Source: a virus
Taxonomy: Duplodnaviria; Heunggongvirae; Uroviricota; Caudoviricetes
Reading direction: 5' to 3' (one strand)
DNA length: 8,001 nucleotides
Virus record (IMG/VR): IMGVR_UViG_2698536408_000011
Shown: positions 1-6,075 of the stretch, in pieces
How the letters are laid out: each line of letters starts with the position of its first letter
How positions within the stretch are numbered: position 1 is the first letter of the stretch
Translations under genes and position numbers: made by a program
The notes under the pieces: generated by a model
Seen by the model: only the letters and a program-made list of their open reading frames with translations
The model's database searches: none
Told to the model about the DNA's origin: nothing

Positions 1-794
<794 letters not shown>

Positions 795-3396: not shown

Positions 3397-4107
3397 TTAA
3401 ATAGCCTTTGCATATTTGCTAGAAATCTTCGTAAGCTGCTCAATATCAGCCTGCATAGCAATCTTCTTAGCATCTTCATATTCTTTCACAAGCTCTTTCA
3501 TAGCCTGAAGCTCTCTTGAGAGATACAACTTAACATTATCAAGTTGCTTGTTACGTGATGCCAAGATGTTCTGTCTAGCAATTTCAGCGAGTTCTTCATC
3601 GCTCTTATTAGTCATGTAAATAAACTGACCAGCACCTCTTGATGCCTTAACCATCTTCACAATTCGATGTCCAGCAGGAAGACTACTAATCACGGCTGCG
3701 ACGTTTTCTTGAAAAGTACCAAAACCATCATTATCTTCGTATTGGTAATAGACAAATGGTTTCTGTGACAATTCATCCTGAATCTCAAATTCTGACGGCT
3801 CAATAGCTGATTGCATCAAGGTAACTTTGCTGTAAGCGTCATCTAATCTAAGGCGCTGTTCTTTCAGCAGTTGGTAATATTTCTTTTCAAGCTCAAGTAA
3901 TGCTTCACTCTTGCAAATATCAGGCATCTCTTGAGGCTCAGGAGACACAAAGATGGTTGTTTTTGGTGACATCTTTAGCGATTGCTCAAGCTCAATACGC
4001 TTGTCATGCTCTTTACGCTGAATAGTGATAGCTGGATGTTCAGTCTGTGGCGACCAGTCACTGAAGCTATCAATCACTTTGCCATTAATGTAAATATCAT
4101 TTGTCAT
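3397..4107 (-). CDS. Hypothetical protein (236 aa from the internal ATG; coiled-coil-rich, acidic)
   Basis: The ORF track starts at a GTG (4155) with no Shine-Dalgarno. The in-frame ATG at 4107..4105 follows GAAGAGGAAAAGCA (GAGG with 6-7 nt spacing) and is preferred. The protein begins MTNDIYINGKVIDSF.... I recognise no catalytic or nucleotide-binding motif. Confidence 0.6.
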   Translation of the reverse strand: MTNDIYINGKVIDSFSDWSPQTEHPAITIQRKEHDKRIELEQSLKMSPKTTIFVSPEPQEMPDICKSEALLELEKKYYQLLKEQRLRLDDAYSKVTLMQSAIEPSEFEIQDELSQKPFVYYQYEDNDGFGTFQENVAAVISSLPAGHRIVKMVKASRGAGQFIYMTNKSDEELAEIARQNILASRNKQLDNVKLYLSRELQAMKELVKEYEDAKKIAMQADIEQLTKISSKYAKAI

Positions 4108-4282
4108 TGCTTTTCCTCTTCTAAGCGGAAGTGTTTCAGTTTTTAAAAAGCACACCTGACAGCCTATCTAAACTTAGAAGAGACTTAAAAGGCGGTTTGC
4201 CAAGTATGCTTTTTAAAAGCTGAATAGCCCTAGATAATTTCTTATAAAGGGCCATTCATAAGGTGAAGAAATTAAAACATCT

Positions 4283-4304
4283 AAAGGATTCAAAAAGGAT
4301 TCAA
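4283..4304. repeat. Tandem direct repeat, 2 x 11 bp (AAAGGATTCAA), in the long intergenic region
   Basis: Read directly at 4283-4293 and 4294-4304. Confidence 0.6.
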
Positions 4305-4330
4305 ACGAATGAACAAGAGTACTTTTCGAG

Positions 4331-4360
4331 ATGACCTCTCAGACTAACCTGAAAGGTCAT
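4331..4360. repeat. Strong inverted repeat / hairpin: 12-bp arms (11/12 match) ATGACCTCTCAG - ACTAAC - CTGAAAGGTCAT
   Basis: Read directly. There is no adjacent U/T tract on either strand, so it is not a canonical intrinsic terminator; an operator or RNA processing/stability element is more likely. Confidence 0.55.
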
Positions 4361-4427
4361 GTAGCGAAAAGCATTGCACCTTTCAGAATAACTATCATTG
4401 ATGTAGAATGATTAATAGTTTAATTCA

Positions 4428-4444
4428 GGAAGAGTTGCTCTTCC
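4428..4444. repeat. Perfect 7-bp inverted repeat with 3-nt loop (GGAAGAG TTG CTCTTCC), ~60 nt downstream of the micro-ORF stop
   Basis: Read directly. No U-tract follows on either strand. Confidence 0.55.
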
Positions 4445-4505
4445 CTATTACCATCATCTCATGCTTAAGGTTATTTGTCAACAGCTTTTTAACAGATTGG
4501 TAACA

Positions 4506-4583
4506 TCAATTCTTATTTACCGTATTACCTACCCAGCAACCAACAAATAACCCTAAAGTCATCCAGAGAATAACGAGTGTCAT
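4506..4583 (-). CDS. Putative 25-aa hydrophobic micro-protein (MTLVILWMTLGLFVGCWVGNTVNKN), translationally coupled to the 101-aa gene
   Basis: Its ATG (4583..4581) overlaps the TAA stop of the upstream gene as TAATG. It has a single membrane-helix-like hydrophobic stretch. It is too short for the ORF track, and a ribosome-binding site would sit inside the upstream coding sequence. Confidence 0.3.
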   Translation of the reverse strand: MTLVILWMTLGLFVGCWVGNTVNKN

Positions 4584-4888
4584 TACATCACCTCGCTGTA
4601 AGGGTTTAATTCATTCTGATAGGTCAAGAATACATTCAGCTTCAATAATTGCTCAGGGCTTAAATCAAGTCGATTGCACTCTTCAATGATAAAGCGCTTA
4701 TTGTATGGGTCTGTTACTTCCAGCTTGTGAACATAGTCACCAAGTTTAATTTCGTTGATTATATGCTTGTCAATATACGTTGACGCTTCAAAACAATGCA
4801 TGAAATAGATATTAAAGCCCGACCTGTTCAGGTCAATCAACCAATTCATGGTTTCTTGGTCAACCATAATTTGCATTGGGTAATTCAT
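4583..4888 (-). CDS. Hypothetical protein (101 aa)
   Basis: ATG at 4888..4886 follows CAGGAAGGA with 8-nt spacing. The protein begins MNYPMQIMVDQETMNWLIDLNRSGF.... I recognise no family. Confidence 0.6.
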   Translation of the reverse strand: MNYPMQIMVDQETMNWLIDLNRSGFNIYFMHCFEASTYIDKHIINEIKLGDYVHKLEVTDPYNKRFIIEECNRLDLSPEQLLKLNVFLTYQNELNPYSEVM

Positions 4889-5034
4889 TTTTAAAATCCT
4901 TCCTGTATCGCATTCTAAGACGTTTTAACCCCTTTTTTAGACCACTTAAGGCGATTCCCTAAGTTACCCTGATTAGGGGCTTAAAAACGTTTCTGGTGCG
5001 TCTGGTAAAGCCTGAGAGATATGTTTTGCTGTTT

Positions 5035-5250
5035 TTAGCTCAAGTCTGAGACTAATAGCCCCATCTGGTGACCGTAGTCTTTTAACCAGCTTTGCTTAAC
5101 CGGAGTCTTCAGAGAATAGTTAGGGGCTGACAAGTGAAGATAGATATCATCTTTGCCGTGGATACTTCCCCATCCTTCGTATAACTCAAGCAAGTTTTCA
5201 AAATAACGAAATGCTTTATTAGTCTGAAGTTGTACTGTGATAGTTTTCAT
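5035..5250 (-). CDS. Hypothetical small protein (71 aa from ATG 5250; alternative ATG at 5262 gives 75 aa)
   Basis: Third gene of a coupled trio. The ATG at 5250..5248 overlaps the TGA stop of the upstream gene as TGATG. The protein begins MKTITVQLQTNKAFRYFENLLELYEGWGS.... No family recognised. Confidence 0.55.
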   Translation of the reverse strand: MKTITVQLQTNKAFRYFENLLELYEGWGSIHGKDDIYLHLSAPNYSLKTPVKQSWLKDYGHQMGLLVSDLS

Positions 5251-5848: not shown

Positions 5849-5898
5849 GGTTGTAGGGGCTGATACAGGTGCTGTTTCCTTTCACAAAAGGAAAATTA

Positions 5899-6075
5899 AT
5901 GCATGATTTTTTCACAGCAATTATTGAATCTCATCGTTTTAGCTCGTTGGGCTTTGCGGTATTTATTGTGCTATTGGTGTTTTGCGTTATGAATCGAGTC
6001 ATTACAAAAAAGACAAAGCTTACAATTCGACTTAAACTTCTTCGTGTTGAGATAGAGATTTCAGTAAATAAATAG
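5899..6075 (+). CDS. Putative small membrane protein (58 aa; one hydrophobic helix then a basic C-terminus); the only credible plus-strand gene
   Basis: ATG at 5899 follows AAAAGGAAA with ~6-nt spacing (the ORF track starts at an upstream GTG, 5869). The protein is MHDFFTAIIESHRFSSLGFAVFIVLLVFCVMNRVITKKTKLTIRLKLLRVEIEISVNK. It lies in an otherwise non-coding gap and does not overlap any minus-strand gene. It converges on the 98-aa gene with only 9 bp between stop codons. Confidence 0.45.
   Translation: MHDFFTAIIESHRFSSLGFAVFIVLLVFCVMNRVITKKTKLTIRLKLLRVEIEISVNK

Follow-up and report, generated by a model that had tools for sequence, protein, structure and literature searches.

The locus described here raises the question of whether a very short open reading frame (ORF) that standard annotation passes over is a gene and, if so, what its product might do. 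The frame, referred to as the micro-ORF, spans 25 codons on the minus strand of an 8,001-nucleotide stretch of viral DNA (Caudoviricetes; IMG/VR record IMGVR_UViG_2698536408_000011), called here the window, and directly follows a gene for a protein of 101 amino acids (aa). A first-pass annotation, made from the DNA letters alone, had pointed it out as a possible small membrane peptide. The properties of the peptide and the comparison of related loci suggest, with a probability of about 0.8, that the frame is a real gene for a small single-pass membrane peptide.

The micro-ORF and its translation start

The micro-ORF had been described as beginning on the stop codon of the 101-aa gene, as missed by standard annotation and as almost wholly one hydrophobic helix, and all three statements were confirmed. 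The coordinates of both genes (Table 1) place the minus-strand junction at the pentamer TAATG (4585..4581), in which base 4583 is common to the TAA stop and the ATG of the micro-ORF. None of the records inspected, from RefSeq or elsewhere, has a coding sequence called at the micro-ORF. The six frames of the window contain 37 ORFs of 20-40 codons that start with ATG; of their products, the peptide MTLVILWMTLGLFVGCWVGNTVNKN is the most hydrophobic, with a best 17-residue Kyte-Doolittle mean of 2.11 versus a background of 0.84 ± 0.72, and it alone possesses a 19-residue run free of charged and amide residues. A transmembrane helix is predicted at approximately residues 2-19; the peptide contains the motif G11xxxG15, Cys16 is invariant, and the tail is polar and includes Lys24.

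Like bacterial small membrane proteins, the micro-ORF has its own ATG and its own ribosome-binding site. The Shine-Dalgarno (SD) sequence GAGGTGAT, which we take to be an eight-base match to the anti-SD sequence, ends 3 nucleotides (nt) before the ATG, with its GAGG core 7 nt from the ATG, and was rated strong. An SD-like purine run (GAGGTGAT, GAGGG, AAGGTGG, AAGGGA or GAGGT) was found 5-9 nt before the micro-ORF ATG in every context, being kept although the C-termini of the upstream proteins differ. The AGGA/GAGG block before the ATG of the 101-aa family is conserved as well (27 distinct upstream regions). Sequestration of the micro-ORF start by RNA structure was also considered and is unsupported (z = -0.25).

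Conservation of the frame and its four sequence types

The micro-ORF was compared across 44 loci including the window, drawn from IMG/VR, GTDB genomes, RefSeq E. coli and Logan/NCBI assemblies, all of which carry the upstream gene family and which belong to Escherichia coli, E. albertii, E. fergusonii and Citrobacter. Loss of the frame in relatives had been named beforehand as an observation that would speak against a gene; an intact hydrophobic micro-ORF was found at this position in 41 of the 44 loci, with a length of 21-25 codons (31 in one stop-loss variant). In these 41 loci no further reading frame separates it from a conserved promoter, and its ATG overlaps or abuts the preceding stop codon in every one of them, in the form TAATG in 31 (including the C. 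braakii locus L015), ATGA in eight and TGAAATG in two. The exceptions are the C. freundii loci L016-L018 (represented by more than 20 contigs), where 12 nt have been deleted between GTAAT repeats; the ATG and four codons are gone, and the other 21 codons remain intact.

The 25 distinct peptides fall into four types (A-D) which are mutually unalignable at the nucleotide level. Type A peptides have 25 aa and follow the consensus M.L...W..LG...GC......N.N (18 variants); a 19th variant, MDLVIAWTMLGLFVGCLIGNEANKN (L043/L044), departs from this consensus at L10. Type B is represented by MELVIICFVLIGMIAGASIKV, type C by MTLMILWVILGLVLSFAISLEK, with the pattern MTL(M/I)ILWV(I/L)LG(L/I)VLSFAIS(L/M)E(K/R), and type D by MIVQLTVVVTCIVLGFWLGGLMIKR. 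A small-xxx-small motif is present in all four types (G11xxxG15, G12xxxG16, G11xxxS15 and G15xxxG19). All four types also carry Lys or Arg within the final five residues, one variant having Gly instead, and the first seven residues are without K or R in 25 of 25 variants. For types A, B and C, for which the hydropathy window was computed, the uncharged run comprises 17-20 residues and the best 17-residue value is 2.1-2.8; type D has an 18-residue run, LTVVVTCIVLGFWLGGLMI, which is similar by eye. Of 5426 complete E. coli genomes, 278 contain DNA encoding type A and 198 contain DNA encoding type B (about 9% together), always on the chromosome. One of the matches lies in E. coli E24377A (NC_009801.1, 1405529-1405621), with 95.7% identity along the whole 93-nt query; MSB1_9I is another candidate carrier strain. 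Peptide types A, B and C have no match in PHROGs, Pfam, NCBIfam or PADLOC, and an exact look-up of 10 peptide variants in a collection of 15 billion proteins returned none of them.

The 18 type A nucleotide versions contain neither an indel nor an in-frame stop, and the proportions of synonymous (pS) and non-synonymous (pN) differences among them are 0.56 and 0.22, respectively. The first-pass annotation had proposed such a comparison across homologous loci, and its outcome indicates purifying selection: pN/pS is 0.39 in the frame of the micro-ORF, the lowest of the six frames, the other five giving 0.93, 1.21, 0.92, 0.52 and 1.34. Across tallies the in-frame value ranges from 0.35 to 0.39 and that of the other frames from 0.52 to 1.57. 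Where the 101-codon gene is strictly collinear (five loci), pN/pS is 0.19 for this neighbour and 0.38 for the micro-ORF.

An open frame of 25 codons is unremarkable in AT-rich DNA, and it is because the micro-ORF is conserved that it is raised above chance. The commonness of such frames is what speaks for a non-coding accident, conserved through regulatory overlap or because the copies are recent; we regard this as the least likely of the explanations considered, since a pS of 0.56 denotes old copies which nevertheless contain no in-frame stops or indels, and since types B, C and D keep the same design without nucleotide similarity to type A. According to a variant of this explanation, the micro-ORF is read only after a -1 frameshift, as an extension by which the 101-aa protein is anchored in the membrane. 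The micro-ORF does lie in the -1 frame, and an A_AAC_CCT heptamer occurs seven codons before the stop in the 101-aa branch of the upstream family. This heptamer is absent from the other branches (107-aa, 100-aa and 97-aa) and from the context of the 74-aa gene described below, and between heptamer and ATG, the -1 frame is interrupted by a TGA in four loci. The proposal of a small membrane peptide thus holds as far as a conserved gene for a single-helix peptide is concerned, and a frameshift fusion that serves as a membrane anchor can be dismissed as a conserved mechanism.

The pair G15-C16, which is invariant across the type A variants (18 plus one more), leads to another explanation, namely that type A is a lipoprotein precursor in which residues 1-15 form a signal peptide, followed by a lipobox (L/F-V/I/C-G-C16) and a lipidated product of about 10 residues. 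LIGC and LVGC are textbook lipoboxes. However, no variant has a Lys or Arg in the n-region, the sole basic residue is C-terminal and predicts the opposite topology, and types B, C and D occupy the same slot without a lipobox, so that such a precursor seems very improbable.

Within type A, N-terminal halves (MTLVILW, MTLIVLW, MGLIIAW, MSLIIAW) are mixed with C-terminal halves (CWVGNTVNKN, CWMGNTVNKN, CLIANAANRN, CIINNAVNKN and others), and many type A BLAST matches end at about codon 10. This mixing suggests recombination breakpoints inside the 75-nt gene, where a variable upstream cassette meets a conserved leader.

The upstream partners and the downstream promoter

Table 1. Position of the micro-ORF and of the features around it. 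Numbers refer to the window unless another locus is named.
Feature	Position	Strand	Description
Micro-ORF	4506..4583	minus	25 codons plus TGA stop; type A peptide MTLVILWMTLGLFVGCWVGNTVNKN
101-aa gene	4583..4888	minus	TAA stop shares a base with the micro-ORF ATG; product probably a DNA-binding protein with tandem ribbon-helix-helix units in a single chain (structure models)
Micro-ORF SD GAGGTGAT	4587..4594	minus	Within the final codons of the 101-aa gene; from sequence
101-aa gene SD AGGAAGGA	4897..4904	minus	8 nt before ATG; from sequence
Putative sigma-70-like promoter TTGACA-17-(TG)GATGAT	4453..4481	minus	10/12 matches, extended -10
Perfect 7-bp inverted repeat GGAAGAG-nnn-CTCTTCC	4428..4444		Directly downstream of the -10 hexamer, at +1
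74-aa gene, MKVQIDEVIKKFDFEK...	L015 3325-3549; L016 3322-3546; L043 2827-3051		Citrobacter and some other islands

The 101-aa protein had been called an ORFan. This was wrong, as it belongs to a sizeable family with a 101-aa, a 107-aa, a 100-aa and a 97-aa branch. The 107-aa branch (e.g., L005 8264-8584) comprises 3460 clusters at 90% identity, mostly singletons and mutually about 90% identical, and such micro-diversity is unusual for a protein of 107 residues in essentially one species. In both structure models of the upstream protein, two ribbon-helix-helix (RHH) units fill residues 5-95 and about 6-12 disordered residues are left. The models lend weak support to a tandem RHH, TraY-like fold and allow the protein to be likened to the tandem RHH proteins TraY, VirC2, AvtR and single-chain Arc. 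No family was assigned to the 101-aa and 107-aa proteins or their neighbours in PHROGs, Pfam, NCBIfam and PADLOC, except for tape-measure and replication-initiator matches elsewhere. Exact 8-mers of the 101-aa protein gave no match in genome contigs, and a search of 50,697 phage records by tblastn with the 101-aa, 25-aa and 236-aa proteins found no match.

The micro-ORF is not always preceded by the RHH-like gene. In the C. braakii locus L015 and in L043/L044, a 74-aa gene is situated between the two, and the micro-ORF ATG then overlaps the stop of this 74-aa gene (TAATG). Since the start remains overlapped when the partner changes, the peptide appears as a fixed terminal cistron and not as an appendage of the 101-aa gene. 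The coupling to the 101-aa gene that had been claimed earlier is therefore right in that the start overlaps in the window, and too narrow in that the coupling is not specific to this gene. In L043, L044 and L015, the start as well as the stop of the 74-aa gene overlap its neighbours; no family match was found for it in Pfam, NCBIfam and PADLOC.

The exchange of partners bears on the possibility of a toxin-antitoxin-like pair, in which a membrane toxin would be held in check by the upstream RHH protein (type II-like, the antitoxin gene coming first and overlapping the toxin gene) or by an antisense RNA (type I-like). Several observations make such a pair improbable. The pairing is not obligatory, as the peptide is coupled to the 74-aa gene where the latter intervenes, and C. 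freundii keeps the RHH-like gene with the start of the peptide deleted. According to the models, the protein is fully occupied by the two RHH repeats, with no tail left for binding a toxin. For an antisense RNA, the only candidate is a promoter-like site on the plus strand (4382..4409) which scores 9/12, is within chance and lies in a poorly conserved block. There was no Rfam match, and no toxin family (Hok, Ldr, Ibs, TisB, ShoB, Fst and others) was found in Pfam or NCBIfam even at E <= 10.

Downstream, the -35 hexamer of the putative promoter begins 24 nt past the stop of the micro-ORF. This promoter presumably marks the 3' boundary of the peptide operon and the start of a downstream operon with the 236-aa gene, the tape-measure gene and the baseplate gene. 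The promoter block TTGACAAATA is nearly invariant (16 distinct loci), and the position of the micro-ORF relative to it is fixed, with offsets of 93-104 nt. This fixed spacing, the short distance between stop and -35 hexamer and the only moderate selection on the peptide sequence would be in accordance with a cis-acting terminal frame, whose translation matters and whose product does not. Ribosomes would be kept on the mRNA until about 25 nt before the promoter, which could prevent Rho termination or modulate read-through into the late operon. However, a spacer ORF leaves unexplained that four unrelated sequences converge on a helix, a small-xxx-small motif and a basic C-terminus. Moreover, none of the other five frames has a pN/pS as low as that of the micro-ORF, and no terminator-like or otherwise significant RNA structure was found over or just past the ORF. 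We consider this explanation very unlikely.

The inverted repeat at the putative transcription start occurs in related loci as GAGAG/CTCTC, GGAAGA/TCTTCC or GGAGA/TCTCC, so that complementarity is maintained; it may serve as an operator or form a hairpin at the 5' end of the RNA. Promoter and leader together form a conserved stretch of about 370 nt (window 4108-4481, minus strand) between the micro-ORF and the 236-aa gene, and the leader block is what 455 of the 5426 E. coli genomes have in common with the window. A second hairpin in the leader (TGACCTTTCAG...CTGAGAGGTCA) shows G-U-compatible changes, a GCCCT...AGGGC hairpin precedes a T-run in many loci, and positions 4135-4224 form a long inverted repeat that gave rise to spurious microRNA-like Rfam matches; the Rfam scan of the whole window gave sub-threshold chance matches only. 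This layout looks like an attenuated or antiterminated late leader.

The octamer TCTCAGRC is found three times in the window, at 4337-4344 (plus strand), 5010-5017 and 5044-5051 (both minus strand), compared with 0.42 expected occurrences; three were reached in 1 of 200 shuffles. Of the three, two precede the 101-aa gene, with one falling inside the palindrome AGTCTCAGACT, and the remaining copy belongs to the late leader. All are candidate operators to which the RHH-like protein might bind.

The longest ORF of the region (252 aa, 3397-4155, minus strand, with a GTG at 4155) is probably mis-started, its homologues beginning at the ATG at 4107 (236 aa, MTNDIYING...). Some copies of this 236-aa gene are labelled "transposase" by PGAP, a label that looks unfounded. 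No Pfam, PHROG or phage match was obtained for it, its PADLOC match was negligible, and an alignment search with its product recovered just two loci.

Possible function of the peptide in a satellite-like island

The window is part of a chromosomal insertion of about 11 kb in complete E. coli genomes (L003 6025-17189). The insertion is found between wrbA and ymdF (L003, L004) and inside a DUF72-family gene between yecD and yecN (L005), and it is bounded by a large serine recombinase. It contains a gene annotated as "baseplate protein", a tape-measure gene, a gene of about 70 aa, the 236-aa gene, a non-coding stretch of about 450 bp, the gene pair studied here, several small genes, a helix-turn-helix replication initiator and a Dam methylase. 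Genes for a capsid, a terminase or the rest of a tail were not found in the island. Lysis genes were not found either, and a holin-type lysis cassette with an endolysin or spanins was thus not encountered. The window does not occur in any sequenced phage except for patches at 271..706 and in the 726-aa tape-measure gene, which are 88-93% identical to Felixounavirus (Felix O1-like) myoviruses; in phage garuso these patches correspond to the tape-measure gene and the gene that follows it, a syntenic pair. Overall, the identity of the tape-measure and baseplate genes of the island to those of Felixounavirus phages is about 90%. Its gene content gives the island the anatomy of a phage satellite or a defence island, and Felix O1-like phages are the probable target, either of a satellite or of an island that interferes with tails.

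Searches of the literature retrieved no paper on the peptide or its strings, and the nearest context is a study of putative satellites in E. coli which encode tape-measure and baseplate-hub proteins, a subset of them also serine recombinases (Barth, Dunham and Seed 2023; PMC10055350). These satellites resemble the island in having an integrase, a replication initiator, a tape-measure gene and a baseplate gene without a full tail or head module, and they differ from it with respect to capsid genes, which were not seen in the island. The island may be related to these elements. The peptide is not mentioned in the passages of that study that were read.

On the opposite strand, the window encodes a second small membrane protein (5899-6075, plus strand; MHDFFTAIIESHRFSSLGFAVFIVLLVFCVMNRVITKK...) of 58 aa when counted from the ATG, the ORF list starting at the GTG at 5869. 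At the corresponding site of the sister islands L019, L025, L035, L039 and L043, a homologous or positionally analogous gene is annotated whose single-helix product has 58-62 aa. This divergently transcribed gene may be one that is expressed in the dormant island.

As the last cistron of a minus-strand operon in the integrated island, the micro-ORF would be translated by ribosomes that end the upstream cistron at its TAA and restart on the overlapping ATG, aided by the strong SD sequence, and the peptide would be made whenever its operon is expressed. It would then insert into the inner membrane with the N-terminus outside and the C-terminus inside, because the N-terminus is without a basic residue and Lys or Arg is located at the C-terminus. 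The positive-inside rule and the packing of helices through GxxxG motifs are established rules, and they underlie this topology as well as the association proposed for the peptide. The helix would work by packing through its GxxxG-like face, either with itself, resulting in membrane perturbation (leakage, depolarisation or altered lysis timing, in the manner of LidI of the Vibrio PLE satellite or of a type I toxin), or with a membrane protein of the host or the phage.

Since the four types have only generic helix features in common, a generic activity is favoured over a lock-and-key interaction. By analogy with known small membrane proteins, we tentatively suggest, at less than even odds, that the peptide could be a generic membrane-perturbing effector which is deployed when a helper phage activates the island. 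A role as a specific modulator or an exclusion factor is doubtful. A bolder reading, of low probability, is a viroporin-like helix of 21-25 residues that acts against the island's helper Felixounavirus or serves to exploit it, and that would collapse the membrane potential or retime holin-dependent lysis upon induction of the island's operon. If the viroporin-like activity were real, the four types would be products of an arms race or of repeated de novo replacement in a fixed slot, and few known effectors of phage satellites would be as small as this peptide, which about 9% of E. coli genomes would carry without annotation. Mimicry of a transmembrane segment of the helper phage was considered as well and rejected, as Smith-Waterman alignments of six peptides with all 2328 phage garuso frames gave none above shuffled sequences.

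Enterobacteria possess a number of small membrane proteins under 50 aa, including the type I toxins Ibs, TisB and ShoB as well as AcrZ, MgtS and MgrB. The peptide resembles these proteins, which have 19-50 aa, a single hydrophobic helix whose orientation is set by few charges, and are often unannotated. In contrast to them, it has no antisense RNA or dedicated structured 5' untranslated region, its start overlaps the preceding gene, it is encoded on a mobile island and not in the core genome, and it does not match their Pfam or NCBIfam models. Another precedent is provided by the lidI genes of PLE, the Vibrio cholerae satellites of a virulent myovirus, as unannotated small transmembrane ORFs that were found by synteny; LidI is expressed only on ICP1 infection, collapses lysis inhibition and speeds lysis, and has no homology to other genes (PMC7182436). 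The analogy consists in a small transmembrane ORF of a satellite or satellite-like element that was overlooked by annotation and is without homologues. Unlike LidI, which has 66 or 121 aa and whose acceleration of lysis was shown experimentally, the peptide has 21-25 aa and a function that is a proposal.

Several points weigh against the conclusion that the micro-ORF encodes a functional membrane peptide. Purifying selection is moderate (0.39), and one antisense frame is also open (0.52). Translation and membrane insertion are predictions from sequence, and no special mRNA structure was found around the start, which leaves the geometry of the junction to account for the coupling. The peptide has no similarity above shuffled controls to any reading frame of the Felixounavirus garuso, and, as no family homology was found, the functional part of the proposal is an analogy. 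Finally, the C. freundii loci have lost the start of the micro-ORF, so that the peptide is dispensable for keeping the island, as one would anticipate if the gene is needed solely in the active island.

If the micro-ORF is a gene, a widespread and wholly unannotated gene would be added to the genomes of E. coli and Citrobacter, and the end of the operon would be a slot that is filled by a tiny membrane helix even after outright sequence replacement. The peptide would also be a clean test case for the annotation of small ORFs by synteny. Felix O1-like phages are widely used in the biocontrol and typing of Salmonella and E. coli, and if the island is a satellite of such phages, the peptide would be a candidate determinant of the outcome of infection.
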